In this document: positions 18,432-42,086 of the stretch, piece after piece
Numbering within the stretch: position 1 is the stretch's first letter
How the letters are laid out: each line of letters begins with the position of its first letter
NCBI GenBank assembly: GCA_017521325.1
Contig: JAFXCV010000061.1
Location: 8,332-72,331, forward strand
Length of the DNA stretch: 64,000 nucleotides
Source: Oscillospiraceae bacterium
Lineage (GTDB): Bacteria; Bacillota; Clostridia; Oscillospirales; Ruminococcaceae
Reading direction: 5' to 3'
Made by a program: the position numbers and the translations under genes
Notes under the pieces: model-generated
What the model was told of the DNA's origin: nothing
What the model saw: the letters and a program-made list of their open reading frames with translations, nothing else
Databases searched by the model: none

Positions 18432-18435
18432 GCGA

Positions 18436-18468
18436 AAAATGCCCCACCTTTTGGTGGGGCACATTTTT
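18436..18468. terminator. Bidirectional intrinsic terminator
   Basis: AAAAATGCCCCACC-tttt-GGTGGGGCACATTTTT between convergent genes. Confidence 0.85.
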
Positions 18469-18474
18469 ATGAAA

Positions 18475-18858
18475 TTAGTCTTCCTTCTCAGGCTCGATGA
18501 TCGGTGCATCTGCAGCGTTCTTGCGTACGCTCTCGATACCGTTCTGGCAGCCAGCCTTTGCCTTGTAGCCTTCGCTTGCGGCAATCACTTCGCCGTTTCT
18601 TGCCTTCAGACGGAAACGGAACTCGCCTGCCTTATCCAGATAAATTTCAAACTTCGGGTGCTTTTCGCTTACATAGCCCTCAACAGTCTGATCCTCCAGA
18701 TTTGCAACCGGTGCATTCTTTGCTACGCTCTCGCAGCCGTTCTTGCAGCTTGCCAGAGAAGAATATACCTCGCCGCCGATGGCAATTGTTTCGCCGTTGC
18801 CAGCCTTCAGTGCAAATGTATAGCCTGTCTTTGTCTGCTTAATTACGAACTTTCCCAT
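18475..18858 (-). CDS. YegP-family protein (tandem DUF1508 domains)
   Basis: Two repeats of the F.L.A.NGE.IA.SE.Y.S...C.NGI.SV..NA pattern; 127 aa. Confidence 0.85.
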   Translation of the reverse strand: MGKFVIKQTKTGYTFALKAGNGETIAIGGEVYSSLASCKNGCESVAKNAPVANLEDQTVEGYVSEKHPKFEIYLDKAGEFRFRLKARNGEVIAASEGYKAKAGCQNGIESVRKNAADAPIIEPEKED

Positions 18859-29893: not shown

Positions 29894-32161
29894 ATGAAAA
29901 AAAATATGATTCTTCTCATCGAATTTTTATTTGCGCTGCTGTCCATCTGGGTGCTGACTGCAACGCACCAAAGACCCGAAAGTGCCTTGATTACACTGCG
30001 TATTTATGTGCTTGTCATGATTGGTGTGACAGGTACACTTGTCCTGATGTTCCGACACTACCTGACGCACCACAGCACCATTGACATCACCCGTATCTGC
30101 GAAACGGTACGAAATCTTGATGTGCCTGCGTTTATCTGGACAAATGACCTCAACACCATTTACACCAATGAGGCAATGGATGATATTCTGGGTATCACCG
30201 AAAGTGAGGACCCCGGTGACAGCGCAAAGCTTCTCAGCACACTGTTTCACAGCATGGGCATCAGCCCCACTTCTGCTGCACAGGAGCTTAATGGCATCAT
30301 CTATCGCTCCACACTCCTTGACTTTGACCGCAACAAACGCTACATCAGCTGGAACACTTCCCTGCTCAAGGAAAATCACAATGCCTCGCTCTATTTCACC
30401 ATCGGCTTTGAAACAACCGAGCTTGTCATGGCAAAACATTCGCTGACTGCCTACGCCAAGAACCTTGCCGCTTCCCAGAGCCGTTATGCGCTTTCCATGC
30501 GCCTTGCCGGCATCGGTATCCTGCTGTGCGAAAGTGTACATGATGTATTCTATGTATCCGATGAAGCCAAAGAATTTCTTGGCATTGACCATAACGAGAT
30601 CACCTTCCAGGAATTCCGGCAGCGACTCCATCCGGAGGATCGTTTCCTGTTTGACGAATACCTCGAGAAGATGCGCTCGGTAAAGAAGGATACGACACGG
30701 AATAAACCGCAGACACTGGAATTCCGTATCCGTCCCGCAGTAGGAAAACCCTACGTCTGGTATTCCTACCACTATCAGGAAAATCTGACCAATGCAACGG
30801 GTGGTCCCATCATCGGCGGTGCGTTGATTGATATCACGGGCGAAAAGAATAAGGATGCAACCATCGAACGCCTGGCATTCATGGATGATATCACAGAAAT
30901 CGCCAACCGCAACAAGCTCATTCAGGACGGCGAACAGACCTATCAGCTCTGCAAGAAAACAGGTTCCACCTACTGGATCATCGTGCTGGATATTGACCGC
31001 TTCCACATCATCAACGACAGTCTCGGTTATGAAAAGGGCGACAAGTATCTGCGTGATTTCGCCCATCTTCTTTGTAAACACACCGCATCCGGCGGTATGG
31101 TCGCACGTCTGAGTGCGGATAATTTTGCAATGCTCGTACAGGACTATGGCGATGAGGAACTTCCGATGCGTATAGTCGAACAGATCCGCATTGACATGGC
31201 AGAGCTTTCCACGGGTGATTCCTCCACAACGGCACTGAGCTGCTCTGCGGCATTTGCACGCATCCCGAATGACGGCAATTCCTTCAAGGAAGCCATGGAG
31301 CATGCGGAATTTACGCTTGCCATAGGACGTGGACAGCTCTCCTATCTGATGGGATACAACGCTGCCATGCACCGTGAAGAGGCAAGCCGAAGCGAGCTGG
31401 AAAAGGAGCTTGCACACGCCATCGCCTCCAAGCAGCTGCAGCTGTACTATCAGCCGAAGGTCGATCTTCGCACCGGCAGAACCATGGGCGCTGAGGCACT
31501 CATCCGCTGGGTGAAGCCCGACGGCACGATGGTTTCTCCGAATATCTTTATCCCCATTGCGGAGCGCACGGGACTGATTTCCGAAATCAGCCACTTTGTT
31601 CTGCATGAGGCATGCGCACAGAATGCGCTCTGGCAGAAAATCCAGTTCAACCCCATTGTCATTTCCATCAATTTCACATCCGAGGATTTCTTCCAGAAGG
31701 ATGTGTGCGAAATGATTCAGGATGTTCTCATCCGCACGGGACTCAAGCCCAAATGGCTGGAGCTGGAGCTGACGGAACGTCTTGCGCTCGGCGATGTCAA
31801 CTACACCATCCAGCAGATGAATATGCTTCGTGAGCTGGGCGTGCTGCTGGCAATGGATGACTTCGGCACGGGATATTCCTCTCTGAGCTATATCCAGCTG
31901 CTGCCGCTGACGCTCCTCAAGCTTGACCGTTCCTTCATTTCCAAGATCGAAACCGACATGGTCGCACGTGAAATCGTTTCTGCCATTATCAAAATTGCCA
32001 AATCCATGGGCATCGAAACCATCGCCGAGGGCGTGGAGTCCGAAGGACAGGTTGCCATCCTCAAGGCGTTTGGCTGCGATTATGTACAGGGATATCTGTA
32101 CGGTAAGCCCATGACAGCACTGCAGTTCCAGAAGCGGCTGGAAGAAGAATCCAACCACTGA
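29894..32161 (+). CDS. Membrane PAS / degenerate-GGDEF / EAL protein (predicted c-di-GMP phosphodiesterase)
   Basis: Two N-terminal TMs and PAS-like regions. The GGDEF signature is replaced by SADNF (ARLSADNFAML). EAL motifs are intact (GAEALIRW, ELTE, DDFGTGYSSL, EGVE, QGYLYGKP). Confidence 0.9.
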   Translation: MKKNMILLIEFLFALLSIWVLTATHQRPESALITLRIYVLVMIGVTGTLVLMFRHYLTHHSTIDITRICETVRNLDVPAFIWTNDLNTIYTNEAMDDILGITESEDPGDSAKLLSTLFHSMGISPTSAAQELNGIIYRSTLLDFDRNKRYISWNTSLLKENHNASLYFTIGFETTELVMAKHSLTAYAKNLAASQSRYALSMRLAGIGILLCESVHDVFYVSDEAKEFLGIDHNEITFQEFRQRLHPEDRFLFDEYLEKMRSVKKDTTRNKPQTLEFRIRPAVGKPYVWYSYHYQENLTNATGGPIIGGALIDITGEKNKDATIERLAFMDDITEIANRNKLIQDGEQTYQLCKKTGSTYWIIVLDIDRFHIINDSLGYEKGDKYLRDFAHLLCKHTASGGMVARLSADNFAMLVQDYGDEELPMRIVEQIRIDMAELSTGDSSTTALSCSAAFARIPNDGNSFKEAMEHAEFTLAIGRGQLSYLMGYNAAMHREEASRSELEKELAHAIASKQLQLYYQPKVDLRTGRTMGAEALIRWVKPDGTMVSPNIFIPIAERTGLISEISHFVLHEACAQNALWQKIQFNPIVISINFTSEDFFQKDVCEMIQDVLIRTGLKPKWLELELTERLALGDVNYTIQQMNMLRELGVLLAMDDFGTGYSSLSYIQLLPLTLLKLDRSFISKIETDMVAREIVSAIIKIAKSMGIETIAEGVESEGQVAILKAFGCDYVQGYLYGKPMTALQFQKRLEEESNH

Positions 32162-32183
32162 TCCCACACAGGAGGTCATTCCA

Positions 32184-32849
32184 ATGAGCAAACAAACCAA
32201 ACCGCAGAAAACCAAGCGTGCCTACACACTGGGTGAGGAAATCTTCAATTCCGTGACACACGGCGTCGGTGCGCTGCTCTCCGTTGCAGGATGCGTCATT
32301 CTCATCGTGTTCTGCGCCATCAACGGCGGCGCTATGGAGGTCGTTTCCGCTTCGATTTTCGGTGCATCCCTCATCATCCTCTACACCATGTCCACACTCT
32401 ACCACGCACTTGTACCTCCGCTTGCCAAAAAGGTATTTCAGATCCTCGATCACAACACCATTTTCCTGCTGATTGCAGGCACCTACACGCCCTTCACCCT
32501 CTGCTGCATCAAGCCCCTGTGGCTTGGCTGGACGATCTTCGGCTGCATCTGGGGTGCGGCAGTGTTCGGTATCGTGATGTCCTCGATCAATCTGGAAAAA
32601 TTCCGCAAAATTTCTACTTTCTGCTATATTCTCATGGGCTGGGGCATCATTCTTGCCGTCAAGCCCCTCTATCAGGGCATACCCACGTTCAGTCTGGTTA
32701 CACTGATTATAGGCGGCGTGCTGTATTCCCTGGGCGTGATTTTCTATGTAAAAAAGAAGATCCATTACATGCACTCCATCTGGCATATCTTTGTGGTCGG
32801 CGGCAGTGTACTGCATTGGTTTTCCGTATTATATGCCATCGGTTTTTGA
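32184..32849 (+). CDS. Hemolysin-III / PAQR family membrane protein
   Basis: Seven TMs with NSVTHGVG, LYHAL and LDHNTIFLLIAGTYTPF motifs. Confidence 0.9.
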   Translation: MSKQTKPQKTKRAYTLGEEIFNSVTHGVGALLSVAGCVILIVFCAINGGAMEVVSASIFGASLIILYTMSTLYHALVPPLAKKVFQILDHNTIFLLIAGTYTPFTLCCIKPLWLGWTIFGCIWGAAVFGIVMSSINLEKFRKISTFCYILMGWGIILAVKPLYQGIPTFSLVTLIIGGVLYSLGVIFYVKKKIHYMHSIWHIFVVGGSVLHWFSVLYAIGF

Positions 32850-32865
32850 GAACTGCACTTTCACA

Positions 32866-32923
32866 GGGGGACGCCGTCCCCCTGTACCCCCTGCCAAAGG
32901 GATGTACATCCCTTTGGAATCCC
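32866..32923. repeat. GC-rich modular palindromic repeat (copy E4)
   Basis: gggggacgccgtccccctgtaccccctgccaaagggatgtacatccctttggaatccca is nearly identical to 13073-13129. Confidence 0.8.
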
Positions 32924-33068
32924 ACGCCACTTTTCATTTATCCCACAAGGGGATAAATGAAAAATGCAAGTTCCAAACAAACACATTCTTGGACAGGAAA
33001 TGCAGGAGATCGGAATCCACTGCAATACTGCATTTCTTAATATCCAATTACAATAAGGAGGAGAACTT

Positions 33069-34145
33069 ATGAAAAAACGTATCGGTATCCTGACCAGCGG
33101 CGGCGATTGTCCGGGACTGAATGCCACGATCCGTGGTGTTGCAAAGGCATGCTTTGAGCGCATGGGTGAGGAAAATGTGGAGATCGTCGGCATTTCCAAC
33201 GGCTACTACGGTCTGATTCACGGGCTGACAAAGGTGATGCAGCCCTCCGACTTTTCCGGCATTCTCACACAGGGCGGCACGATCCTCGGCACAAAGCGTC
33301 AGCCGTTCAAGATGATGACGGTCATCGGCGATGACAACGTGGACAAGGTCAAGAACATGAAGGAAACCTACCGCAAGGAAAAGCTCGACTGCCTGCTGAC
33401 ACTCGGCGGCAACGGCACGCACAAGACCTCCAAGCTTCTGGCGGATGAGGGACTCAATGTCATTGGTCTTCCCAAGACCATCGACAACGACATCTACGGC
33501 ACGGACGTGACCTTCGGATTCCACACGGCTGTGGATATTGCAACCGATGCCATCGACAGACTGCATACGACTGCTGCAAGCCATTCCCGTATTATGGTTT
33601 GCGAGATCATGGGCAACAGAGCCGGCTGGCTGACGCTGTATGCAGGCGTTGCAGGCGGTGCGGATATCATTCTCCTGCCGGAGATTCCGTATGACATCGA
33701 AAAGGTGTGCGATGCAGTTGTAAAGCGCAGCGTGAAGGGCAAAACCTTCTCGATTCTGGCAGTTGCTGAGGGCGTGTATGATGTGCAGGAGGCTGCGCTC
33801 AAGAAGAAGGAACGTGAAAAGCTTCGTGCAGAAAACGGCAATGCGACAAACCGCATCGCCAAGGAAATCGAGGAGCGTACCGGCATTGAAGCCCGTGTAT
33901 GCGTTCCCGGCCACATGCTGCGTGGCGGTTCTCCCTCTGCGTATGACAGAATGCTCGCTACCCAGTTCGGCGTGCATGCTGCTAAACTCATTGCCGAGGA
34001 GAAATTCGGCAGAACCGTAGCTCTCGTGGACGGCAAGATCACCTCCAACAAGCTCTCTGATATTGCAGGCAAGAAAAAGCTTGTGGATCCCAAGTGTCAG
34101 GAGGTTCTGGCAGCAAGAGATCTGGGCATTTCGTTTGGTGATTAA
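33069..34145 (+). CDS. pfkA: 6-phosphofructokinase
   Basis: GILTSGGDCPGLNA, LGGNGTH and PKTIDNDI motifs; 358 aa. Confidence 0.95.
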   Translation: MKKRIGILTSGGDCPGLNATIRGVAKACFERMGEENVEIVGISNGYYGLIHGLTKVMQPSDFSGILTQGGTILGTKRQPFKMMTVIGDDNVDKVKNMKETYRKEKLDCLLTLGGNGTHKTSKLLADEGLNVIGLPKTIDNDIYGTDVTFGFHTAVDIATDAIDRLHTTAASHSRIMVCEIMGNRAGWLTLYAGVAGGADIILLPEIPYDIEKVCDAVVKRSVKGKTFSILAVAEGVYDVQEAALKKKEREKLRAENGNATNRIAKEIEERTGIEARVCVPGHMLRGGSPSAYDRMLATQFGVHAAKLIAEEKFGRTVALVDGKITSNKLSDIAGKKKLVDPKCQEVLAARDLGISFGD

Positions 34146-34163
34146 GCGTAACAATCGTAATAT

Positions 34164-34194
34164 CGCCCATCCCCTGTTTTGGGGATGGGCGTTT
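34164..34194. terminator. Bidirectional intrinsic terminator after pfkA
   Basis: CGCCCATCCCC-tgtttt-GGGGATGGGCG plus TTTG. Confidence 0.75.
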
Positions 34195-34211
34195 GATGTA
34201 TGCTCTTCCGT

Positions 34212-34502
34212 TTACCCGAACCATTTCATACATGCGACAATTGCAATGAATATCGCCACTGCAATGGAAAGGACCGCAGTAGTTTTGCTGTGATTCCACT
34301 CACGGATGCCCTGTGTGAGCATGAGAACCCCCAACAAGGGCATGAAGATGTTATCCGCATTTTCCATCACACCGGTCAGTCCAAGAATCACAAATACGAT
34401 TCCACCAATGCTGGCAATCATGCCGATGATCATTGTAATTTTCACATACAGCGGGCGTTCCCTCCATGTACGGATGATGCGTTCCTTTGTTTCCTGTTTC
34501 AT
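34212..34502 (-). CDS. Small integral membrane protein (96 aa, three predicted TMs), unknown function
   Basis: ATG 34502 with a GGAGGT RBS. Sequence MKQETKERIIRTWRERPLYVKITMIIGMIASIGGIVFVILGL... Confidence 0.55.
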   Translation of the reverse strand: MKQETKERIIRTWRERPLYVKITMIIGMIASIGGIVFVILGLTGVMENADNIFMPLLGVLMLTQGIREWNHSKTTAVLSIAVAIFIAIVACMKWFG

Positions 34503-34605
34503 AAAATGTACCTCCATTGATTGGAATAGCAAGCTGACAATAGTATTATAGCACATTGTTATGAAAACGTCAATATCGGATACTTGTCATCGCAATTTCT
34601 GCCGC

Positions 34606-34740
34606 TTGTGAAAAACAGTTTTTCACAATTTCTTTGTGAAATTCTTGACAAAGGGGCGATTTTGTAGTAAAATAGAAAGTATAGTGGAAAGTTATATCAT
34701 TTTGAAAGGACTGATTACAATGGGTTTGACATTAACAGAG
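34606..34740 (+). repeat. Diverged duplicate (about 90% identity) of the acn upstream dyad, Rex-box, promoter, RBS and first 7 codons
   Basis: Aligns base-for-base with 36611-36745 (14 mismatches in 135). Copy promoter TTGACA 34645-34650 / TAAAAT 34668-34673. The mini-ORF ATG 34720...TAG 34741-34743 encodes MGLTLTE. Confidence 0.9.
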
Positions 34741-34860
34741 TAGACGGCAAGATCACTTCCAACAAGCTCTCTGATATTGCAGGCAAGAAAAAACTTGTGG
34801 GTCCTAAGTGTCAGGAGGTTCTGGCAGCAAGAGATCTGGGCATTTCGTTTGGTGACTAAG
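34741..34860 (+). repeat. Diverged duplicate (about 96% identity) of the 3' end of pfkA, including the stop codon
   Basis: Aligns with 34027-34146. There are five mismatches, four of them synonymous in the pfkA frame. Confidence 0.9.
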
Positions 34861-34878
34861 CAGCGCATCACAGCAATT

Positions 34879-35986
34879 GAACAACAACAATACCCCCAAT
34901 GCCTATGATCGATAGTTATATAGAAGTATTACAAAGCCACATTTGATGTTTATGTCAAAAGTGGCTTTGCGTTGCTTACGGCATTGACTGATTATAGTAT
35001 ATTTGCTATAATCAGTGTATGAAATAATAATTCTCTTAAATCTTATGGCTAAAATGCTGACAAGACATAATTGTCTAGTGGAAAACACGTCATTTCTCAC
35101 TTTATGACGTGGATTTCTAATGATATTCTTAGTATAATGGACAGTGAAAGGAGGAACGAAATGATAGACCAGATTAAAATTGGTGGTTTTCTAAAAGAAT
35201 TACGTAAAGAAAAGGAACTAACACAAGAACAGTTGGCAGAAAACTTTGGTGTATCTTCTCGAAGTGTATCTCGTTGGGAAAATGGCAATACTATGCCAGA
35301 ATTGGGCATTTTAGTCGAGTTGGCAGATTTCTATGAGATTGACATCAAAGAAATCATTGATGGTGAAAGGAAAAGTGAGATTGTGGAAAAGGAAGAGAAA
35401 GAAACTTTACTGAAAGTTGCCGAATATGCTGATAAGCAGAAAAGGCAGGCAATATTGAAAGCTGTAATTATTTTTTCATTGGAAATGATCTGCTGTGGTT
35501 ATACGATTGCCATGGCGTTCATGGTACTCATGGGTGATGGTCAAATCAGTGCGGGATATGCTGTTATACCGTCACTGATTACATTTGTCTTTTCTGTTAT
35601 TCTGGCAATAAACGCAAAGGATTTTGTGACAAATAAACAGAAGTGAGCATCAATTTGAAAGTTGCTTAAAACAACAACTCACAATTTGTAGGACTCGTGA
35701 AAATTTCAGTTTGACAGAGCGACAAATTCCAATAGGATTAACACATCCAATCGATAAACCGTCGAGCGCCTCTTATTGTATGCTTCGCCCTTATGGTGAA
35801 ATTGTATAATCACCGTACAGCATCGACCACACCGAACAAGCATTAAGCTCTGATTGAGCGTATCAAGTCATTCGATGAAGATGTCAAAGTTGTGCTTGAA
35901 GCTAAAATAACCCGTGAAGAATTTCTTCACGGGTTATACTTCTTTATTAGTACGCTGCCTAGGCATTGGGGGTATTACTATTGTTC
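34879..35986. mobile_element. 1.1-kb AT-rich segment bounded by 26-bp imperfect inverted repeats, carrying an XRE-TM gene (candidate non-autonomous mobile or invertible element)
   Basis: Left repeat gaacaacaacaatacccccaatgcct (34879-34904) matches the reverse complement of the right repeat aggcattgggggtattactattgttc (35961-35986) at 23 of 26 positions. The interior is visibly lower in GC than the flanks. No transposase or recombinase ORF is present. Confidence 0.35.
35161..35646 (+). CDS. Membrane-anchored XRE-family (HTH_3) transcriptional regulator
   Basis: ATG 35161 with an AAAGGAGG RBS. HTH segment LKELRKEKELTQEQLAENFGVSSRSVSRWENGNTMPEL. Two C-terminal TMs. An upstream promoter TTGACT-17-TATAAT (34984-35012) is embedded in an 11-bp perfect dyad ACTGATTATAG/CTATAATCAGT (34987-35016). 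Confidence 0.85.
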   Translation: MIDQIKIGGFLKELRKEKELTQEQLAENFGVSSRSVSRWENGNTMPELGILVELADFYEIDIKEIIDGERKSEIVEKEEKETLLKVAEYADKQKRQAILKAVIIFSLEMICCGYTIAMAFMVLMGDGQISAGYAVIPSLITFVFSVILAINAKDFVTNKQK

Positions 35987-36004
35987 ATCAAAAACGCAAT
36001 TCCC

Positions 36005-36541
36005 TCATCTTCTCTTGAAGCGACGATGCTTGTTCGACCGATAATACTGCTGTGCAGTTCTTTTCGGTTCCTGATTCTGGTTGTACAGCTTCAGCAAGTA
36101 CGTCAGCCCGAACAACGGGATCGGAATCAGGATCAGCACCGTATCCGAAAAGTCCTTAAAATTTGTGATTTTCAGGCTAAAGAATGCAGCAATCGCAAGG
36201 ATGATCACATATCCAAGAATGCAGATCGTGCATTCTCCCGACGAAACCTCCGATGTCCTGCGGATGCCGATCAGCCGCAGAAGATGGTAGCCGATTCCGC
36301 TGAGCGCCAGAACGATCGTAAAGCAAAGCATAACGTCAAGAAAATCCTTGGACTGCGCAGCACCTTCCGATGTGAGCAGAACGGCTAAAGAGGAAAAATC
36401 AATCACCCCGACAAAAGGAAGCTTCAGATTGGAAAGCCCCTCGGGAGAATGCAGCATTTTCACCAGCGAATATGCACCGTAGCCGAGCGTTGCGGTCAGC
36501 AGATTATAGGTCAGAACTCTGAGAAATTCTTTAAATGTCAT
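36005..36541 (-). CDS. Integral membrane protein (178 aa), unknown function
   Basis: Four to five hydrophobic segments and a basic C-terminal tail (KHRRFKRR). It occupies the same position relative to the acn promoter as the 96-aa ORF does relative to the promoter copy. Confidence 0.55.
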   Translation of the reverse strand: MTFKEFLRVLTYNLLTATLGYGAYSLVKMLHSPEGLSNLKLPFVGVIDFSSLAVLLTSEGAAQSKDFLDVMLCFTIVLALSGIGYHLLRLIGIRRTSEVSSGECTICILGYVIILAIAAFFSLKITNFKDFSDTVLILIPIPLFGLTYLLKLYNQNQEPKRTAQQYYRSNKHRRFKRR

Positions 36542-36610
36542 GATATACCCCTTTTCTGTGGTAATTTATGTTATATTATACCATATTACCGCAAAAAAGT
36601 CAACATTTCA

Positions 36611-36633
36611 TTGCGATAAACAGTTTTTCGCAA
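36611..36633. promoter_or_regulatory. 23-bp dyad TTGCGATAAAC-A-GTTTTTCGCAA upstream of the acn promoter (candidate operator)
   Basis: 10 of 11 arm positions are complementary. The paralogous copy at 34606-34628 reads TTGTGAAAAAC-A-GTTTTTCACAA, with changes on both arms that preserve the symmetry. Confidence 0.4.
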
Positions 36634-36638
36634 AATCC

Positions 36639-36656
36639 TTGTGAAATTCTTGACAA
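36639..36656. promoter_or_regulatory. Candidate Rex operator overlapping the -35 of the acn promoter
   Basis: TTGTGAAATTCTTGACAA matches 17 of 18 positions of the published Rex-box consensus TTGTGAAnnnnTTCACAA. An identical sequence lies in the duplicate at 34634-34651. The rex gene is encoded downstream of icd. Confidence 0.5.
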
Positions 36657-36678
36657 AGAAGCGATTTTGTAGTAAAAT
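36650..36678 (+). promoter_or_regulatory. acn promoter (TTGACA-17-TAAAAT)
   Basis: Hexamers at 36650-36655 and 36673-36678, about 45 nt upstream of the acn ATG. Confidence 0.6.
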
Positions 36679-36724
36679 AGTAAGTATAGTGGAAAGCTAT
36701 ATCATTTTGAAAGGATTGATTACA

Positions 36725-38662
36725 ATGGGTTTGACTTTAACGGAAAAGATCCTGCGTGCGCACCTCGTTGACGGTGAGCCGGTCAAGGGTCAGGAAATCG
36801 GTATCCGCATCGACCAGACACTGACGCAGGATGCGACAGGTACCATGGCGTACCTCGAATTTGAGGCAATGGGTGTGCCGAGAGTGCGTACAGAGCGCAG
36901 TGTGGCATACATTGACCATAATACTCTGCAAAATGGCTTTGAGAATGCCGACGACCACCGTTTCATCGGTTCTGTAGCCAAGAAGCACGGCATTCACTTC
37001 TCCCGTCCCGGCAATGGCATCTGCCATCAGGTACATCTGGAACGCTACGGCATTCCGGGCAAGACCCTCATCGGCTCTGACAGCCACACTCCCACAGGCG
37101 GCGGTATCGGTATGATCGCCATCGGTGCAGGCGGTCTGGACGTTGCAGTTGCAATGGGCGGCGGCGCATATTATATCACCTATCCGCAGGTTGTTAAGGT
37201 AAACCTGACAGGCAAGCTCTCTCCGTGGGTTGCAGCAAAGGATGTCATCCTCGAAGTGCTGCGCAGACTGTCCGTTAAGGGCGGCGTTGGCAAGGTCATC
37301 GAATACTGCGGCGAAGGTGTCAAGACACTCTCCGTTCCGGAACGTGCAACCATCACCAACATGGGCGCAGAGCTGGGTGCAACGACTTCCATCTTCCCGT
37401 CCGATGAAATTACAAAGCAGTTCCTCGAAGCACAGGGCAGAGGCGAGGTATGGAGCGAACAGTCCGCAGATCCCGATGCTGTATACGATGAAGTGGTTGA
37501 CATTAACCTCTCCGAGCTGGTTCCCCTGGCTGCATGTCCGCACTCCCCTGACAATGTCAAGAGCTGCGAGGAAATCGGCAAGCTGAAGATTGATCAGGTC
37601 TGCATTGGTTCCTGCACCAACTCTTCTCTGCTCGATATGATGAAGGTTGCGCACATTCTCAAGGGCAAGACCGTACATCCCGACGTTTCCCTGTCCATCG
37701 CTCCCGGCTCCAAGCAGGTGCTGAATATGATGGCTGACATGGGTCTTTTGTCCATTATGATCGCAGCAGGCGCAAGAATTCTCGAATCCGCCTGCGGTCC
37801 GTGCATCGGTATGGGTCAGTCCCCGAATTCCGGCGGTATCTCTCTGCGTACCTTCAACAGAAACTTCCTCGGCAGAAGCGGAACCAAGGATGGTCAGATT
37901 TATCTGGTATCCCCGGAGCTTGCTGCAATTTCCGCAGTTACAGGCTATCTGACAGACCCCAGAGAAATCGGTGAAATGCCCGAATTCGTACTGCCTGAGA
38001 AGTTCACAGTGAATGACAATATGATCGCACTTCCTGCATCCGAGGAGGAGGCAGCAGACGTGGAGATCCTGCGTGGCCCGAACATCAAGCCCTATCCGGA
38101 GACTGCTCCGCTGGAGGCTTCCATCGAGGCACCTGTTTCCCTCAAGGTTGAGGACAACATCACAACAGACCACATCATGCCCGCAGGCGCAAAGATCCTT
38201 CCCCTGCGTTCCAACATTCCTGCAATTTCCCAGCACTGCTTCACAGTTTGTGATGAAGCTTTCCCGACTCGTGCAAAGAAACTGGGCAAGAGCATCATCG
38301 TGGGCGGCTCCAACTATGGTCAGGGCAGCTCCCGTGAGCATGCGGCTCTCGCACCGCTGTATCTGGGCATCAAGGCAGTTCTCGTGAAGTCCTTCGCAAG
38401 AATCCACCGTGCAAACCTTGTCAATGCAGGTATCCTGCCGCTGACATTTGTCAACGAAGCGGATTACGATGCAATTTCTCAGGGCGATGTTCTGGAGCTT
38501 GCTGACATCCGTGCTAAGGTAGAAGCAGGCGAAACACAGCTGACAGTCCTCAACAAGACCACCGGAAAGGAAATTCCGGTACTGTGCGAGCTGACAGGCA
38601 GAACCAAGGATATCATGCTCGCAGGCGGTCTGCTTGACTACACAAGAGAGAATCTGAAGTAA
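36725..38662 (+). CDS. acn: Aconitate hydratase (about 645-aa type)
   Basis: MGLTLTEKILRAHLV... start. Fe-S ligand Cys motifs (IGSCTNS, ACGPCIGMG). C-terminal swivel domain. ATG 36725 follows an AAAGGA RBS. Confidence 0.95.
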   Translation: MGLTLTEKILRAHLVDGEPVKGQEIGIRIDQTLTQDATGTMAYLEFEAMGVPRVRTERSVAYIDHNTLQNGFENADDHRFIGSVAKKHGIHFSRPGNGICHQVHLERYGIPGKTLIGSDSHTPTGGGIGMIAIGAGGLDVAVAMGGGAYYITYPQVVKVNLTGKLSPWVAAKDVILEVLRRLSVKGGVGKVIEYCGEGVKTLSVPERATITNMGAELGATTSIFPSDEITKQFLEAQGRGEVWSEQSADPDAVYDEVVDINLSELVPLAACPHSPDNVKSCEEIGKLKIDQVCIGSCTNSSLLDMMKVAHILKGKTVHPDVSLSIAPGSKQVLNMMADMGLLSIMIAAGARILESACGPCIGMGQSPNSGGISLRTFNRNFLGRSGTKDGQIYLVSPELAAISAVTGYLTDPREIGEMPEFVLPEKFTVNDNMIALPASEEEAADVEILRGPNIKPYPETAPLEASIEAPVSLKVEDNITTDHIMPAGAKILPLRSNIPAISQHCFTVCDEAFPTRAKKLGKSIIVGGSNYGQGSSREHAALAPLYLGIKAVLVKSFARIHRANLVNAGILPLTFVNEADYDAISQGDVLELADIRAKVEAGETQLTVLNKTTGKEIPVLCELTGRTKDIMLAGGLLDYTRENLK

Positions 38663-38696
38663 GCAAGCCTTTTCCATGATATAAAAGGTAAAGCAA

Positions 38697-38915
38697 ATGA
38701 TGTTAAGTATGTATGAATCCATGGCACGGCGCATCAGAATTCGTTCCGCTTCCGATGTCGGACTTCTGATCGTTCTGCTGGCAATCGTGATTGCTGCACA
38801 GTATTTCTTACCCAAGTATTTCACGGGCATCTCTGAAACAAAACTGAAAGTGATTATTTATGCAATTACAATCCCCATTGCTGTGGTCTGGTTCTTTTTG
38901 GTAGACTCACAGTAA
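38697..38915 (+). CDS. Small membrane protein (72 aa, two TMs), paralog A
   Basis: MMLSMYESMARRIRIRSASDVGLLIVLLAIVIAAQYF... RBS AAAAGGTAAAG. It has a paralog at 38984. Confidence 0.5.
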   Translation: MMLSMYESMARRIRIRSASDVGLLIVLLAIVIAAQYFLPKYFTGISETKLKVIIYAITIPIAVVWFFLVDSQ

Positions 38916-38948
38916 CAATCAATTTCTAAAATTACAGAGGTAATTCCC

Positions 38949-38984
38949 ATGGCTGATAAAATCACAGGAGAGAATCTGAAGTAA
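38949..38984 (+). other. Hybrid mini-ORF MADKITGENLK: icd RBS and codons 1-5 fused in frame to the last 6 codons and stop of acn; its stop overlaps the next ATG (TAATG)
   Basis: agaggtaattcccATGGCTGATAAAATC matches the icd start (39233-39260). ACAGGAGAGAATCTGAAGTAA matches the acn 3' end (38642-38662). Confidence 0.6.
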
Positions 38985-39220
38985 TGATGCATACGATCGA
39001 CTTTCTCATGCGGCGGTACAGTAGAAGCCGCATAGATTCGCCGGAAGAACTTGGCTGCCTGATTGTGAGTCTTGCAGTGGTATTTGCGGCGCAGTATTTC
39101 ATTAAAAAATTCTATCCGGATGTATCGGAAGCACTGCTGAAAGCGATCTCCTACGGCATCATCTTCGTGATCGTCATCATCTGGGTTTTTGTCGTTCCGC
39201 AAGGGACAAGCAATTCATAA
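38984..39220 (+). CDS. Small membrane protein (78 aa, two TMs), paralog B
   Basis: [39 protein letters not shown]... shares the AAQYF core and topology with the 72-aa ORF. It has no RBS of its own; the start is coupled to the mini-ORF stop. Confidence 0.5.
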
Positions 39221-39245
39221 ATTCAATCAACAGGAGGTAATTCCC

Positions 39246-40460
39246 ATGGCAGATAAAATCAAAATGACCACTCCCCTCGTCGAAATGGATGGCGACGAGA
39301 TGACCAGAATTCTCTGGCAGTGGATTAAGGACATCCTCATCACTCCTTATGTGGAGCTGAATACAGAGTACTATGACCTGGGTCTGGAATATCGTGAAAA
39401 GACCAAGGATCAGGTAACCTTCGACAGCGCAGAGGCTACCAAGAAGTACGGCGTTGCAGTAAAGTGCGCAACCATCACACCCAACGCTGCAAGAATGCCC
39501 GAATACAACCTCTCCCAGATGTGGAAGTCCCCGAACGGCACGATCCGTGCAATTCTGGACGGTACCGTATTCCGTACACCCATTCTCGTAAAGGGTATCA
39601 CGCCCTACATTCCCACATGGACACAGCCGATCACCATCGCTCGTCATGCATACGGCGATGTTTATAAGAACACCGAGATGCAGGTAAAGGGCGGCGGCAA
39701 GGCGGAACTCGTTTTCACCGACAAGGACGGCAACGAAACACGCCAGCTCATCCATGAATTCACAGGCGACGGCATCATTCAGGGTCTGCACAACATTGAC
39801 AATTCCATCGCAGGCTTTGCAAGAGCATGCTTCAACTACGGTCTGGATCTGAAGCAGGATGTATGGTTTGCAACAAAGGATACCATTTCCAAGCAGTATG
39901 ACCACCGCTTCAAGGACATTTTCCAGGAAGTATTCGACGCAGAGTACAAGGAAAAGTTTGAGGCTGCAGGTATTGAATATTTCTACACACTGATCGACGA
40001 CGCAGTGGCTCGTGTCATCCGTTCCAACGGCGGCTACATCTGGGCTTGCAAGAACTATGACGGCGACGTTATGTCCGACATGGTTTCCACCGCTTACGGC
40101 TCTCTGGCAATGATGACTTCCGTTCTGGTATCTCCCGACGGCATCTATGAGTACGAGGCTGCACACGGCACGGTGCAGCGTCACTACTACAAGCACCTCA
40201 AGGGTGAGGAAACCTCCACAAACTCCGTAGCTACCATCTTTGCATGGAGCGGCGCACTGCGCAAGCGTGGTGAGCTGGACAATATTCCGGCACTATGCGA
40301 TTATGCGGACAAGCTGGAGAAGGCAACAATTCAGACCATTGAAGACGGCGTGATGACGGGTGACCTGTACCTGCTGTCCTCTCTGGAGAACAAGAAGAAG
40401 GTAAATTCCAAGGAATTCCTGGAAGAAATCAACGTTCGCCTCGCCGCTTTGATGCAGTAA
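39246..40460 (+). CDS. icd: NADP-dependent isocitrate dehydrogenase (IDH1-like subfamily II)
   Basis: [22 protein letters not shown]... and CATITPN motifs; 404 aa. RBS AGGAGG. Confidence 0.95.
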
Positions 40461-40470
40461 GGAGCATATC

Positions 40471-41124
40471 ATGGCCAAACAGGCAATTTCAACGCCGGTA
40501 ATCCGTCGTTTGCCACGTTATTACCGCTTTCTGGGTGAGCTGGAGCAGGAGGATATGGAACGCATTTCCTCCAAGGAGCTGGCACGCCGCATGGGGCTTT
40601 CTGCTTCCCAGATCCGTCAGGATTTCAACTGCTTCGGCGGTTTCGGGCAGCAGGGTTACGGCTATAATATCAGTGAGCTGCGTGAGAAAATCGGCATGAT
40701 CCTCGGTGTGAACGAACGCACGGGCGTGATTCTCATCGGTGCCGGCAATCTCGGCAAGGCGATTGCAACGCATCTTGATTTTCAGAAGCGTGGCTGTGAG
40801 CTGATTGGAATTTTCGACAGTAATCCCGACCTGCACGGCGTCAACACCGCAGGACTTCCCATCCTCCCGATGGAGGAACTGTCCGCTTTCTGCCGGAAAC
40901 ACAAACCGCAGGTTGCAGTACTGACCATCCCCAAGGGTGCTGCGCAGGAGCTGGCTGACCAACTGATTTCACTTGGAATCTGCGGATTCTGGAATTTCAG
41001 TCACTTTGATCTGCGTATCAACAATCCGCAGATCATTGTGGAAAACGTCCATCTCGGTGACAGTCTAATGACGCTTGCATACTGCATGCACCGTGGCGAA
41101 GGCTGCGATACTTCCGACGAATAA
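40471..41124 (+). CDS. rex: Redox-sensing transcriptional repressor Rex
   Basis: IRRLPRYYRFL, SSKELA...SQIRQDF..FG..GYGY and the Rossmann motif GAGNLGKA. Confidence 0.95.
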   Translation: MAKQAISTPVIRRLPRYYRFLGELEQEDMERISSKELARRMGLSASQIRQDFNCFGGFGQQGYGYNISELREKIGMILGVNERTGVILIGAGNLGKAIATHLDFQKRGCELIGIFDSNPDLHGVNTAGLPILPMEELSAFCRKHKPQVAVLTIPKGAAQELADQLISLGICGFWNFSHFDLRINNPQIIVENVHLGDSLMTLAYCMHRGEGCDTSDE

Positions 41125-41128
41125 CATT

Positions 41129-41158
41129 AAGCCCATTCCAATCGGAATGGGCTTTTCT
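41129..41158 (+). terminator. Intrinsic terminator after rex
   Basis: AAGCCCATTCC-aatc-GGAATGGGCTT plus TTCTC. Confidence 0.75.
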
Positions 41159-41252
41159 CATGCCTTCTATCTTTCGATATATAAAAGTAATCCCCCTGCT
41201 TTCGCAGGGGGAATTTTTACTTTTTAGGGCTTTCGTCCTTTAGGAGAGGGAA

Positions 41253-42086
41253 TTAGTCTTCCTTCTTCTTAGCAACGATAGCAACGCCACCCAGGATAGC
41301 TGCTGCAGCTGCTACTCCTACGATCGGCAGAACGTCAGTTGTGCCTGTTGCAGGAGAACCAGTGCCAGGAGTTGTGGATGTAGCTGTGCCTGTGCCTGTT
41401 GTTGTAGTTGTTGTAGTTGTCTCAGAAGACTCAGTTGTTGTAGTTGTCTCAGACTCAGTTGTAGTTGTCTCAGACTCAGTTGTAGTTGTCTCAGACTCAG
41501 TTGTTGTAGTGGTTTCCTCAGTTGTTGTTGTAGCCTCTGTTGTCGGAACACCAGTAATCTTGATCCAGCCATCTACAGCATCAGCAGAGCCAGCAGCAAC
41601 ATAGTCAGCCTTAGTGGTTGTATCGCCCCAGATGTGCTTCTTGCCTTCCTGGTCCTGAGCTGCGTATGTGATGTCGAACTGATCGCCAACAGCAGCTGTC
41701 TCCGGAACCTTTACAACGATACCGCAGATGATCATGTCGGACTTCTTGTATGTTCTTGCGTTAGCGCCGTTTACCCAAGCGAACTCAGCGTCGCTGCTCT
41801 TAGCAGCTTCAACAGCCATCATAACTTCCTGAACATCCATATCAACTGTGAAAGAGCAGCCTTCTTCAACGCCTACGCCAAATGCGAATGCATTGATACC
41901 AGCGTTCTCTGTCAGAACGATGTTGATCGGTACTTCATAGTTCATAGCCTTCAGTTCGTCCAGATCAATCTCAACCTGATCGATCTCAACTGTTGCGCCT
42001 TCTGCGGATGCGGAAGCAGGAATAGCTGCTGCGCATGCAACCAGAGACATTGCAGCAACTGCTGCCATAATCTTCTTAAAATTCAT
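41253..42086 (-). CDS. Cell-wall-anchored single-cohesin protein (ScaE-like anchoring scaffoldin)
   Basis: ATG 42086 (RBS AAAGGA). Signal peptide MNFKKIMAAVAAMSLVACAAAIPASA. A cohesin-like module of about 150 aa. A (TESETTT)n Thr-rich linker. A sorting-signal-like C-terminus: SPATG, then a hydrophobic stretch, then KKKED. Confidence 0.75.
   Translation of the reverse strand: MNFKKIMAAVAAMSLVACAAAIPASASAEGATVEIDQVEIDLDELKAMNYEVPINIVLTENAGINAFAFGVGVEEGCSFTVDMDVQEVMMAVEAAKSSDAEFAWVNGANARTYKKSDMIICGIVVKVPETAAVGDQFDITYAAQDQEGKKHIWGDTTTKADYVAAGSADAVDGWIKITGVPTTEATTTTEETTTTTESETTTTESETTTTESETTTTTESSETTTTTTTTGTGTATSTTPGTGSPATGTTDVLPIVGVAAAAAILGGVAIVAKKKED

Follow-up and report, generated by a model that had tools for sequence, protein, structure and literature searches.

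The pfkA-acn spacer of a rumen Ruminococcus-like bacterium (Oscillospiraceae) contains two alternative spacer versions in series, connected by one illegitimate junction, and the resulting stack is a real, inherited structural variant that stems from ordinary recombination and represents no new type of system. In the rumen Ruminococcus-like species complex this spacer is hypervariable, with a conserved gene on each side and many alternative cassettes. The core of the sequence-only reading of this DNA, namely that two diverged alleles lie head-to-tail across a new acn-5'|pfkA-3' junction, is supported by the analysis. The explanation that we consider best, with a probability of about 75%, is one illegitimate join combined with homologous exchange with the DNA of a diverged relative. 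All positions refer to the window, i.e., the whole stretch of 64,000 nucleotides that was analyzed.

Gene order and repeated blocks

The region opens with an intact pfkA on the forward strand (33069-34145; ATP-dependent 6-phosphofructokinase, 358 aa; Pfam PFK 344 bits, NCBIfam NF002872), the exact protein product of which is present on 14 public contigs. A terminator hairpin with an 11-bp stem (34164-34191, forward strand, found by terminator scan) is common to pfkA and orf96 and marks the start of the first unit's own spacer sequence; the same hairpin is reiterated three times in a related locus (L122). The gene of cassette A, orf96 (34212-34502, reverse strand, with the start taken as the 96-aa version given by gene callers), encodes a DUF3953-family small membrane protein with two hydrophobic segments by hydropathy. 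Its Pfam DUF3953 score of 20.4 bits falls under the 22-bit cut-off, and its homologues carry the NCBI name DUF3953. A predicted promoter (TTGACG-17-TATAAT, 34573-34545) orients it divergently from the acn promoter copy that follows. The gene of cassette B, orf178 (36005-36541, reverse strand), encodes a multi-pass membrane protein by hydropathy that has no match in Pfam, NCBIfam or PADLOC. Six homologues were found, all within the clade, and pfkA and acn flank each one whose context was read. It is divergent from acn, with a predicted promoter at 36603-36575. The intact acn (36725-38662, forward strand; aconitate hydratase, 645 aa; NCBIfam NF005558, 994 bits) is followed by icd and rex (Iso_dh and Rex domains). 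The order previously proposed from the sequence, pfkA, cassette A, acn', pfkA', cassette B, acn, is correct.

A repeat search returned two pairs of direct repeats, 34026-34147 with 34740-34861 (95% identity) and 34606-34744 with 36611-36749 (89%). Chance is excluded as their source: the best off-diagonal self-match of 32000-38500 reaches 194 bits, while the maximum over 100 dinucleotide-preserving shuffles is 31.9 bits. In base-by-base alignment the first copy of the pfkA block (34026-34147, forward strand) comprises codons 320-358 with their stop and 2 further nt, and the second, pfkA' (34740-34861, forward strand), is a promoterless, truncated 3' fragment with codons 320-358 and the stop. 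The block covers the last 40 codons of pfkA, with homology running from codon 320 to 2-3 nt past the stop codon, and 116 of its 122 positions are identical, the longest identical runs being 50 and 35 nt. Five mismatches had been counted here originally, four of them synonymous; the synonymous bias stands, and the count becomes six over 34027-34146, five of them silent at third codon positions (34028, 34043, 34079, 34091, 34142) and one a non-synonymous change private to pfkA' (34087, D340G). By our calculation, third codon positions would take five of six differences with P ~0.018 under uniform placement. The mismatch that had been overlooked, at 34742, adjoins the junction and creates a TAG stop.

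The acn block pairs the functional upstream region and first seven codons of acn (36611-36745, forward strand; dyad 36611-36633, Rex box 36639-36656, promoter 36650-36678, RBS) with acn' (34606-34740, forward strand), which consists of a 23-nt dyad (34606-34628), Rex box (34634-34651), promoter (34645-34673), RBS and codons 1-7 (34720-34740) and runs into the TAG at 34741-34743. Base-by-base comparison agrees with the 14 mismatches in 135 nt reported earlier (121/135 identical, longest identical run 20 nt), including three coding differences that are all synonymous (ACA/ACT, ACA/ACG, GAG/GAA). Both upstream copies keep TTGACA-17-TAAAAT and the identical 18-mer TTGTGAAATTCTTGACAA, which has one mismatch to the Rex operator TTGTGAAW4TTCACAA (PMC2883068). 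The motifs of what had been described as an intact-looking second acn promoter and Rex box are thereby retained, and the duplicate promoter is predicted to be active.

Within the second spacer version, a low-GC unit of 1.05 kb (34906-35959, forward strand) interrupts the pfkA terminator palindrome at its centre, with a TA dinucleotide on either side. The left half of the palindrome (34878-34905, ...AATACCCCCAATGCC-TA) and the right half (35960-35987, TA-GGCATTGGGGGTATT...) form an inverted repeat with an exact 17-mer in both arms, and the homologous place in L120 has an intact hairpin. The strong outer inverted repeat that had been taken to bound an XRE element is this split palindrome and not a terminal repeat of the element. 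The unit carries an XRE promoter (34984-35012), an XRE-HTH gene with two TM segments (35161-35646; Pfam HTH_3 56.7 bits), what is left, in decayed form, of the N-terminal part of an IS110-family (DEDD) transposase gene (~35776-35905), and, at 35907-35937, a hairpin, with a GC content of 0.33-0.39 vs. 0.54-0.56 in pfkA. It is 93-97% identical to L142:5477-6795, a copy with a DEDD_Tnp_IS110 match of 38.5 bits that lies in an unrelated genomic context, again at the centre of a palindrome. IS110-family insertion sequences target palindromes or REP sequences (PMC1525189; PMC11208160; PMC11187229), and the XRE unit (this unit only) resembles them in having the N-terminal part of a DEDD transposase gene, no strong terminal inverted repeats of its own, the same dinucleotide on both sides, and an exact palindrome-centre position in two unrelated loci. 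It differs from them in that its transposase is cut to at most 92 codons and decayed in the window, and in that it has a passenger XRE gene. These two insertion sites suggest that the unit may be mobile.

Recurrence of the junction and the separate alleles

At the junction (34740|34741) acn codon 7 meets pfkA codon 320, and the microhomology amounts to 0-1 nt. Every stacked locus has the identical join, ...ACAGAG|T(G/A)GACGG..., in which G is the ancestral base and A, which yields the TAG, is found in the window, L003 and L017. It is present in seven assemblies (ERZ28018977, ERZ28653715, ERZ28653793, ERZ28594401, ERZ28653969, GCA_017501075.1, and GCA_017520925.1) that come from several submissions and different assemblers (of MEGAHIT and SPAdes type) and include two NCBI MAGs; all of this evidence is at the assembly level, from metagenome assemblies or MAGs, and several samples belong to a single study (XIEF21-1) and may have strains in common. 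The strains that bear the junction are 97-100% identical, with genomes differing elsewhere by 1-3%, and in a comparison of stacked strains L105/L106 with the window (98.5% identity over ~10 kb) the SNP density of the stack equals that of its flanks. Derived forms are also present: a stack whose second slot has a lipoprotein gene in place of the XRE unit, and an eighth assembly (ERZ25021427, L005) in which 34702-35840 is deleted at a CATT microhomology, taking out the junction itself. The stack is a lineage-level variant, neither recent nor private, that is common to strains 1.5-3% apart and has been modified since it formed.

These observations bear directly on whether the assembler created the structure, as a chimera or by stringing two collapsed strain haplotypes one after the other, as might be suspected for a metagenomic window at a polymorphic locus near which short Logan contigs break. 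Such an artifact is effectively refuted, as the junction requires k-mers that are absent from both alleles, and it recurs base for base in genomes that differ elsewhere and that have derivatives specific to particular lineages (TAG variant, CATT deletion and lipoprotein slot). Its repetition in independent assemblies removes the objection, which the sequence-only reading had itself named as its possible refutation.

The two cassettes do occur as separate alleles when the pfkA-acn interval is compared across related genomes, a check that had been proposed with the original claim. An unstacked pfkA-orf178-acn type is seen on a 37-kb contig (L119, pfkA-hairpin-orf173-acn) and a pfkA-lipoprotein-orf178-acn type in L120 and L121 (pfkA-lipoprotein-orf179-acn). 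The unstacked B allele of the same species is represented by two 1.5-kb Logan contigs (L008, L009), in which an intact pfkA leads directly to the start of cassette B. An orf96 homologue lies 5' of acn without a stack in L020, L123, and L132, and immediately upstream in the first two; L006 reads pfkA-orf96-LRR, with the contig ending before acn, and no same-species contig holds a continuous unstacked A allele from pfkA through acn. A sister species (L021) has an empty spacer of 255 bp.

The differences between the repeated flanks are polymorphisms that segregate in the intact pfkA and acn of other strains. Of the five synonymous variants in pfkA', four are carried by intact pfkA genes elsewhere and jointly constitute the L009 haplotype: pfkA' matches the intact pfkA 3' end of L009 at 34043, 34079, 34091, and 34142, and cassette B comes next in L009. 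Similarly, the acn' codons ACA TTA ACA GAG are those of the real acn start of L120, and the promoter variants of acn' are partly common to the acn promoter of L020, which lies after an orf96 homologue. The matches to intact L009 pfkA and L120 acn bear out the proposal that the extra flanks diverged inside functional genes.

Origin of the stack

We infer the recombination mechanism and the direction of transfer from these patterns. An A allele (pfkA, hairpin, orf96, P_acn, acn) and a B allele (pfkA, hairpin, orf178, P_acn, acn) would have been joined serially by an illegitimate join of acn codon 7 to pfkA codon 320, essentially without microhomology, together with one homologous exchange with the DNA of a diverged relative in a conserved flank. 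Neither repeat block resembles a reciprocal chimera, so the homologous crossover probably lay outside the blocks and is apparently absent within them. The geometry of the product fits the Campbell-type topology first put forward, i.e., insertion of a circularized pfkA3'..acn5' fragment, and it would be the same if a linear fragment were integrated ends-out through homology-facilitated illegitimate recombination (HFIR); duplication with allele replacement also fits the sequence. The product would keep pfkA and acn intact, with a dead 3' piece of pfkA as one leftover and a spare Rex-box/acn promoter plus seven codons as the other. The stack would then have been passed on and edited, by the G-to-A change that gives the TAG stop at the junction, by exchange of the second slot for, or from, a lipoprotein allele, and in one strain by the CATT-microhomology deletion. 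The short, diverged flanks may have stabilized the product: the units share only 122 nt (95%) and 135 nt (89%), so RecA-mediated collapse should be rare.

Tandem duplication in place gives an identical topology, and transformation-triggered tandem duplications are documented (PMC3784515). In such a route, illegitimate sister-chromatid exchange would first double pfkA(codon 320)..acn(codon 7) as identical units, after which homologous recombination with other strains' DNA would replace one unit and convert its flanks. The second unit has evidently been exchanged via a crossover inside the 120-nt pfkA', as the window type and the L001 type have the same junction but different pfkA' haplotypes and cassettes, and with this fragment as a homology arm the two-step route is mechanistically possible in the population. 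We nevertheless regard it as unlikely, since two or more rare events are required, including a crossover within 135 nt of homology or less, an identical duplication of 0.7-2 kb should collapse fast by homologous recombination, and no homo-allelic stack is seen among ~40 related loci.

A second, independent hetero-allelic stack with a different junction, at the pfkA-acn spacer of a related species, also argues against duplication first and for direct import of a foreign allele. Four loci (L122, L125, L129, L131) equal L123 plus an 803-bp insertion that includes unique DNA and an orf96 allele 4.5% diverged; on either side of the insertion lies a copy of a 154-nt direct repeat from the acn promoter region. 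In their flanks L122 and L123 share 99.97% identity, a pattern that in-place duplication followed by divergence cannot give.

The same locus weighs on the suggestion of a small integrative element, site-specific for the pfkA 3' end, that brings a replacement 3' end and leaves the pfkA duplicate as attL/attR. A duplicated target-gene 3' end around inserted DNA is the classic signature of such elements; yet the L122 stack has a different junction without a pfkA fragment, the other boundary in the window is an unrelated second host repeat (acn 5'), and the supposed element of 714 bp would consist of one orf96 gene plus the promoter and first codons of the host acn. Neither unit contains or adjoins an integrase or recombinase gene, and the sole transposase trace, of IS110 type, is in the XRE unit, which has boundaries of its own and lies 160 nt away. 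An origin of this kind is very improbable.

Comparison with known systems

The preferred reading, a single illegitimate join with homologous exchange, has its closest parallels in the orphan-module arrays of Rhs, CDI, and T6SS effector-immunity loci, which form by displacement and for which HFIR has been proposed (Kirchberger et al., 2017, PMC5361080; for displacement of Rhs C-termini, Jackson et al., 2009, as cited there). In both cases an arriving allele joins the resident one without replacing it, the displaced unit retains a fragment of a conserved neighbour gene, alternative alleles accumulate at one locus, whole arrays later move between strains by homologous recombination, and the process recurs in separate lineages. 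The present locus differs in that its anchors are the housekeeping metabolic genes pfkA and acn rather than a toxin gene, both flanks are doubled (the 3' end of one gene, and the promoter plus 5' end of another), and its cassettes encode small membrane proteins, a lipoprotein and an XRE regulator, with no toxin-immunity logic shown.

One-sided homology with an illegitimate join is an established route (PMC3240628), and HFIR in transformation or conjugation is attributed to de Vries and Wackernagel (2002), Prudhomme et al. (2002), and Meier and Wackernagel (2003), as cited in PMC5361080. The stack shares with HFIR a single homologous anchor, a join with little or no microhomology, and foreign DNA that is trapped next to a conserved gene. 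The experimental demonstrations are in other species, whereas the mechanism here is an inferred one, and the join here would fall within the donor-homologous region, giving duplicated flanks and not a simple insertion-deletion.

As in Campbell insertion-duplication and merodiploids, the homology region is repeated head-to-tail around inserted DNA with a new join point. The transformation-induced merodiploids and tandem duplications of pneumococcus span 100-900 kb (Johnston et al., 2013, PMC3784515), compared with units of 0.7 and 2.0 kb here; unlike Campbell products and these merodiploids our units are hetero-allelic, and unlike the latter the join does not coincide with a pre-existing repeat (an IS, for example). 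Finally, the stack is like integron cassette arrays in having gene cassettes in series at one promoter-adjoining locus, and unlike them in that it is without integrase, attI or attC and that its junction site varies, from acn codon 7|pfkA codon 320 in this lineage to ~+10 of the acn promoter in the other.

Repeat blocks and the junction between them

The interval between pfkA (33069-34145) and acn (36725-38662, followed by icd and rex) carries two direct repeats, which a repeat search of 32000-38500 places at 34026-34147 versus 34740-34861 (95% identical) and at 34606-34744 versus 36611-36749 (89% identical). As the sequence-only reading had proposed, the two duplicated blocks abut at 34740/34741, where codon 7 of a partial acn copy (acn', 34606-34740) is joined straight to codon 320 of a promoterless pfkA 3' fragment (pfkA', 34740-34861). 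The top off-diagonal self-match reaches 194 bits, whereas none of 100 dinucleotide-preserving shuffles exceeded 31.9 bits, so the repeats lie far beyond chance. Base-by-base comparison gives 121/135 identities in the acn upstream block, in agreement with the 14 mismatches counted earlier, and the 3 differences within acn codons 1-7 are, as was also claimed, all synonymous. The pfkA block is 116/122 identical, and the earlier count of 5 mismatches has to be raised to 6, the one missed being the G-to-A change at 34742 that places a TAG stop behind the 7 acn' codons; five of the six are synonymous third-position changes and the remaining one is D340G. Homology to pfkA runs from codon 320 to 2-3 nt past the stop codon, and homology to the acn region has its left edge at a 23-nt dyad that precedes the Rex box.

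The annotations of pfkA, of the HlyIII gene before it (32184-32849), of acn, icd and rex, and of the genes in the spacer are confirmed. The first unit of the stack (the A allele) holds orf96 (34212-34502, minus strand), which encodes a DUF3953-like protein with two TM segments, and the second (the B allele) holds an XRE unit, with a gene for an XRE-HTH protein with two C-terminal TM segments at 35161-35646, together with orf178 (36005-36541, minus strand), which encodes a multi-pass membrane protein of no family. Both end blocks are thus repeated in direct order around a novel join, as in a tandem duplication, but the units are not homo-allelic, with orf96 in one and the XRE unit and orf178 in the other. 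Beyond the 122-nt and 135-nt end blocks they are unrelated, and blastp detected no similarity between orf96 and orf178.

Contigs encoding the exact window PfkA, orf96, orf178, XRE, HlyIII and Rex proteins were looked up for their architecture, with assemblies as the evidence base throughout. Independent assemblies with the window architecture were recovered in this way: ERZ28018977 (a MEGAHIT-style contig) and ERZ28653715 (a scaffold) match the window at 100% identity over 32800-37200, GCA_017501075.1 is stacked and 99% identical, ERZ28594401 and ERZ28653793 also carry the stack, and GCA_017520925.1 and ERZ28653969 are 98.5% identical over ~10 kb and colinear through the junction to 34857. Relative to the natural acn and pfkA sequences, the junction (ACAGAG joined to TGGACGG) leaves a possible overlap of 0-1 nt, and its string, ATGGGTTTGACATTAACAGAG followed across the join by T(G/A)GACGGCAAGATCAC, is the same in every stacked assembly, with G in the related contigs L001, L004, L101, L105 and L106 and A, giving the TAG stop, in the window, L003 and L017. 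In the G strains (window 34720-34905) the acn' codons continue out of frame for ~60 codons into pfkA', a chimeric ORF that would sit behind an apparently intact promoter and RBS and that the window's G-to-A change cuts to 7 codons.

The stack is not an assembly or strain-collapse artefact, since assemblers cannot make up junction k-mers and the identical junction occurs in genomes differing elsewhere by 1-3%; the chimera considered in the sequence-only reading is not supported when the junction recurs base for base in independent assemblies. The SNP density in the stack is that of its flanks, which means that the junction is either as old as the 1.5-3% divergence of these strains or was passed between them by recombination. 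The tandem arrangement at this hypervariable spacer is genuine, heritable and hetero-allelic.

Separate alleles and the origin of the stack

In a species-representative scan with PfkA, pfkA adjoins acn in 2 of the 80 loci listed (L020 and L021), which confines the comparison to a narrow clade, and the window's own species has no representative among these 80. The farther relative L021 (pfkA 79% nt, PfkA 88% aa) has an empty spacer of 255 bp between pfkA and acn, and the closer relative L020 (about 80-89% nt) is arranged pfkA-lipoprotein-lipoprotein-orf100-P_acn-acn, its orf100 sharing 69% identity with orf96 and aligning colinearly with 34219-34739 of the window. The other arrangements seen are pfkA-Fic/Phd-orf96-acn (L123 type), pfkA-lipoprotein-orf96-LRR-acn (L132 type), pfkA-orf96-LRR in L006 from the window's species, pfkA-hairpin-orf173-acn on the 37-kb contig L119, and pfkA-lipoprotein-orf179-acn in L120 and L121; on the Logan contigs L008 and L009 an intact pfkA runs into the start of cassette B. 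Related genomes therefore carry A-like (L020, L123) and B-like (L119-L121) forms as alternative alleles without the stack, and the earlier structural interpretation of alleles stacked through a novel junction is supported by both the recurrent junction and the separate alleles. Exact searches with HlyIII, Rex, Acn and orf96 found no same-species unstacked A allele reaching acn (L006 ends before acn).

The repeated flanks can themselves be traced to intact genes. At the sites 34043, 34079, 34091 and 34142 the window's pfkA' has T, A, T and C, matching the intact pfkA of L009 at its 3' end; the fragment has no private changes other than D340G and the one next to the junction. In L120 the real acn start has the acn' codons ACA TTA ACA GAG, and the acn' promoter has variants in common with the L020 promoter following the orf96 homologue. 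The presence of these diagnostic sites in intact genes elsewhere supports the earlier inference that the extra flanks diverged within working genes.

One illegitimate join with 0-1 nt of microhomology plus one homologous exchange would produce the stack. Campbell insertion of a circularised fragment, as first proposed, would give the observed product, and homology-facilitated illegitimate recombination (HFIR) of a linear fragment would give the same one. The illegitimate end in HFIR typically has 0-10 nt of microhomology. In HFIR homology anchors one end, while the other undergoes an illegitimate join (PMC3240628), and HFIR is the mechanism proposed both for the orphan immunity arrays of V. 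cholerae T6SS clusters and for Rhs C-terminal displacement (PMC5361080). Here one end is joined with little or no homology (0-1 nt), and the DNA appears to have been imported from a different strain or species, with the flank variants segregating in other strains' intact genes. The pfkA' and acn upstream copies resemble whole natural haplotypes and neither block looks like a reciprocal chimera, which mildly favours a homologous crossover beyond the short repeat blocks, in pfkA or acn proper.

In the pfkA block the longest identical runs are 50 and 35 nt, and in the acn block the longest is 20 nt. Given the substrate requirements of RecA, short diverged homology should recombine rarely, while identical duplications would soon be lost. 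With the shared homology this short and diverged, homologous collapse should be rare, so divergence-limited collapse plausibly explains the persistence of the stack.

Derived forms of the stack are also found. In GCA_017520925.1 and ERZ28653969 a 941-bp insert coding for a 287-aa lipoprotein takes the place of window 34858-36001, with its left end directly after the pfkA' stop codon, where a hairpin follows directly 3' of pfkA', and its right end at the orf178 stop codon. These two assemblies also depart from the window in their pfkA' haplotype from ~34793 on, which indicates that the second slot was swapped by homologous recombination with the pfkA' fragment as left arm. ERZ25021427 (L005) lacks 34702-35840, with CATT at both breakpoints, a deletion that left neither the acn' RBS and codons nor pfkA', and little of the XRE unit. 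Spacer lipoproteins encoded at L001 7845-8708, L020 7132-8842, L120 1050-1913 and L132 5305-6156 have a common signal/lipobox N-terminus (…LLTGCNRYGTD…) and are otherwise 35-58% identical across strains and species, and are thus predicted to form a hypervariable surface-protein family.

The second-slot exchange bears on a two-step route, in which a tandem duplication may have come first and allele replacement later. Short-arm recombination evidently occurs in the population and transformation-induced merodiploidy is documented (PMC3784515), but this route requires more events, and no homo-allelic stack was seen among the loci compared.

A second, independent stack is present in a related species. 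The loci L123, L124, L127 and L130 are arranged pfkA-Fic/Phd-orf96a-P_acn-acn, and L122, L125, L129 and L131 have the same arrangement plus an extra 803 bp composed of 44 nt of unique DNA, a terminator hairpin copy, a second orf96 allele (95.5% nt, 10 amino-acid differences), a 250-nt GC-rich segment and a promoter region. A direct repeat of 154 nt from the acn promoter region (99.4% identical) lies on either side of the insertion, and the join falls near +10 in the acn transcript. Since L122 and L123 share 99.97% identity in their flanks, a copy divergence of 4.5% in a background differing by 0.03% is incompatible with duplication and divergence in place and requires a foreign allele that was imported and added in series, so this case also counts for foreign origin. 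It indicates that the locus is prone to hetero-allelic stacking and that the junctions are not site-specific. The pfkA/orf96 terminator hairpin (CGCCCATCCCCTGTTTTGGGGATGGGCG plus flanks, 41 nt; window 34164-34191) has three copies in L122 (3907-3947, 4950-4990 and 5544-5584 in reverse-complement coordinates), which bracket the Fic/Phd toxin-antitoxin cassette and each orf96 copy; each spacer cassette apparently moves together with a boundary hairpin copy of its own.

These observations do not agree with a site-specific integrative element forming an att-flanked island, as the related-species stack has other end points and unit contents swap independently of the junction. The ORFs in 34146-36610 are orf96, the XRE gene, orf178 and a decayed IS110 fragment that belongs to a separately bounded unit, and no recombinase gene is carried or adjoining. 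An integron would be expected to show an IntI integrase, an attI site and cassettes bounded by attC, but no integrase was found and the cassette edges are gene stop codons, terminator hairpins and a promoter, with no attC-like site in common. The stack is instead the product of known recombination processes.

The XRE unit, the spare promoter and neighbouring spacers

The XRE unit (34906-35959) is 93-97% identical to L142:5477-6795 (GCA_052837865.1), where it lies in an unrelated context between an MscS channel gene and DUF2812 genes. Over the two copies it measures 1.05-1.3 kb and contains the XRE-TM gene, the N-terminal 55-60 codons of an IS110-family DEDD transposase and a hairpin, with a GC content of 0.33-0.39 versus about 0.55 in pfkA. 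In L142 a 92-codon ORF matches PF01548 with 38.5 bits (cut-off 29 bits) over profile positions 1-55/155 only, the homologous stretch of the window is broken by stops, and an intact transposase is absent from both copies. Each copy lies in the exact middle of a palindrome and is flanked by TA at either end (CCCCCAATGCC-TA-GGCATTGGGGG in the window, CATTTCT-TA-ATAAATG in L142). IS110-family elements insert sequence-specifically, often into palindromes or REP targets, and have no strong terminal repeats (PMC1525189, PMC11187229, PMC11208160), and the XRE unit is like them in its insertion into palindromes and in missing strong terminal repeats. Sequence-specific palindromic insertion without long terminal inverted repeats is seen at two sites; with two sites only and no intact transposase, family membership is not established, and the unit, with its passenger gene, is probably a decayed IS110-family derivative of the palindrome-targeting kind.

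The sequence-only reading had described the XRE element as bounded by inverted repeats. A 55-nt inverted repeat does exist, but in each arm the outer 26-28 nt belong to the host, as halves of the pfkA/orf178 terminator palindrome, as judged from the palindrome-centre position, the edges of homology to L142, and L120, which has an intact hairpin at the homologous place and whose left-arm sequence aligns with the window to 34901. A transposon with terminal inverted repeats is therefore rejected.

The duplicate acn promoter and Rex box had been called apparently intact, and in sequence this is borne out: TTGACA-17-TAAAAT is kept in both acn upstream copies, and the 18-mer TTGTGAAATTCTTGACAA is identical in both (34634-34651 and 36639-36656). 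The 18-mer overlaps the -35 element and has 1 mismatch to the Rex operator, an 18-bp inverted repeat, TTGTGAAW4TTCACAA, found in promoter regions (PMC2883068), and is thus a candidate operator. Matches to the operator with <=2 mismatches number 3 in the 64-kb window versus 0.43 expected, and the rex gene is encoded 3.7 kb downstream. The predicted spare promoter and Rex box face the XRE unit across acn' and pfkA', and a terminator scan predicted no terminator downstream of the spare promoter and ahead of the XRE gene.

Pfam, NCBIfam and PADLOC gave no assignable function for the cassette proteins, and a defence-system reading was rejected, as the PADLOC matches are generic HTH and Fic only. 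An Rfam scan of 30000-42000 returned nothing meaningful, with a single sub-threshold snoRNA match.

Upstream of each Rex box lies the perfect or near-perfect 23-nt dyad (34606-34628 and 36611-36633), with the sequence TTGTGAAAAAC-A-GTTTTTCACAA in one case and TTGCGATAAAC-A-GTTTTTCGCAA in the second. What separates the two is a compensated pair, T/A to C/G (TTGTG...CACAA versus TTGCG...CGCAA), but the L122 version is mixed and non-compensated, so covariation is not established; the dyad could be an operator for divergent membrane-protein promoters.

Variation extends to adjoining spacers. The HlyIII-pfkA spacer (~32860-32970) has a perfect 24-nt palindrome at 32894-32917 and an imperfect one at 32928-32966, and three Logan contigs (L109-L111) stop ~65 nt past HlyIII, which suggests that this spacer is also polymorphic among strains. 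The acn-icd spacer carries tandem paralogous small membrane ORFs at 38697-38915 (72 aa) and 38984-39220 (78 aa); L005 (4667-4924) is without ~300 bp of it, the 72-aa copy included, and related species have a PARG-like gene and 69-71-aa ORFs at this position instead, which makes this spacer a second place where cassettes vary. In L114 a gene encoding cohesin and dockerin domains (18030-18654) lies downstream of the window's rex region and fits a cellulosome-bearing, Ruminococcus-like organism of the ruminant gut.

Meaning of the stack and comparison with known systems

A joint reading of these results is that the spacer is an integrase-free accretion hotspot whose cassettes are selected like orphan immunity genes and whose Rex-box promoter puts the XRE gene under redox control. 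Alleles would repeatedly be added in series and not swapped, at least twice independently, each bringing or receiving a copy of the Rex-controlled acn promoter. The cassettes (the DUF3953 and orf178 membrane proteins, hypervariable lipoproteins, the LRR protein and Fic/Phd) would protect against phage or bacteriocins, by analogy with the orphan immunity genes of polymorphic-toxin loci. We consider this combination unlikely, at roughly one chance in eight.

The stack itself is a natural case, beyond toxin-immunity loci, in which a bacterial genome has fixed two alleles of a single locus one after the other, and it is well resolved, with a preserved junction, identifiable separate alleles, derived forms and a second independent occurrence in the same spacer. 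It illustrates illegitimate-plus-homologous recombination at work in uncultured rumen Firmicutes and how a duplication can gain stability from the divergence of its alleles. A promoter copy can also be put to new use, the predicted Rex-box promoter now facing a horizontally acquired XRE regulator. For annotators and binning pipelines it is a caution that such structures can be genuine and not strain-collapse artefacts. The stack reveals no new molecular machine, and its interest is moderate, as a well-resolved natural case of an already known type of recombination, for which the closest parallel is provided by the orphan-module arrays of polymorphic toxin loci.
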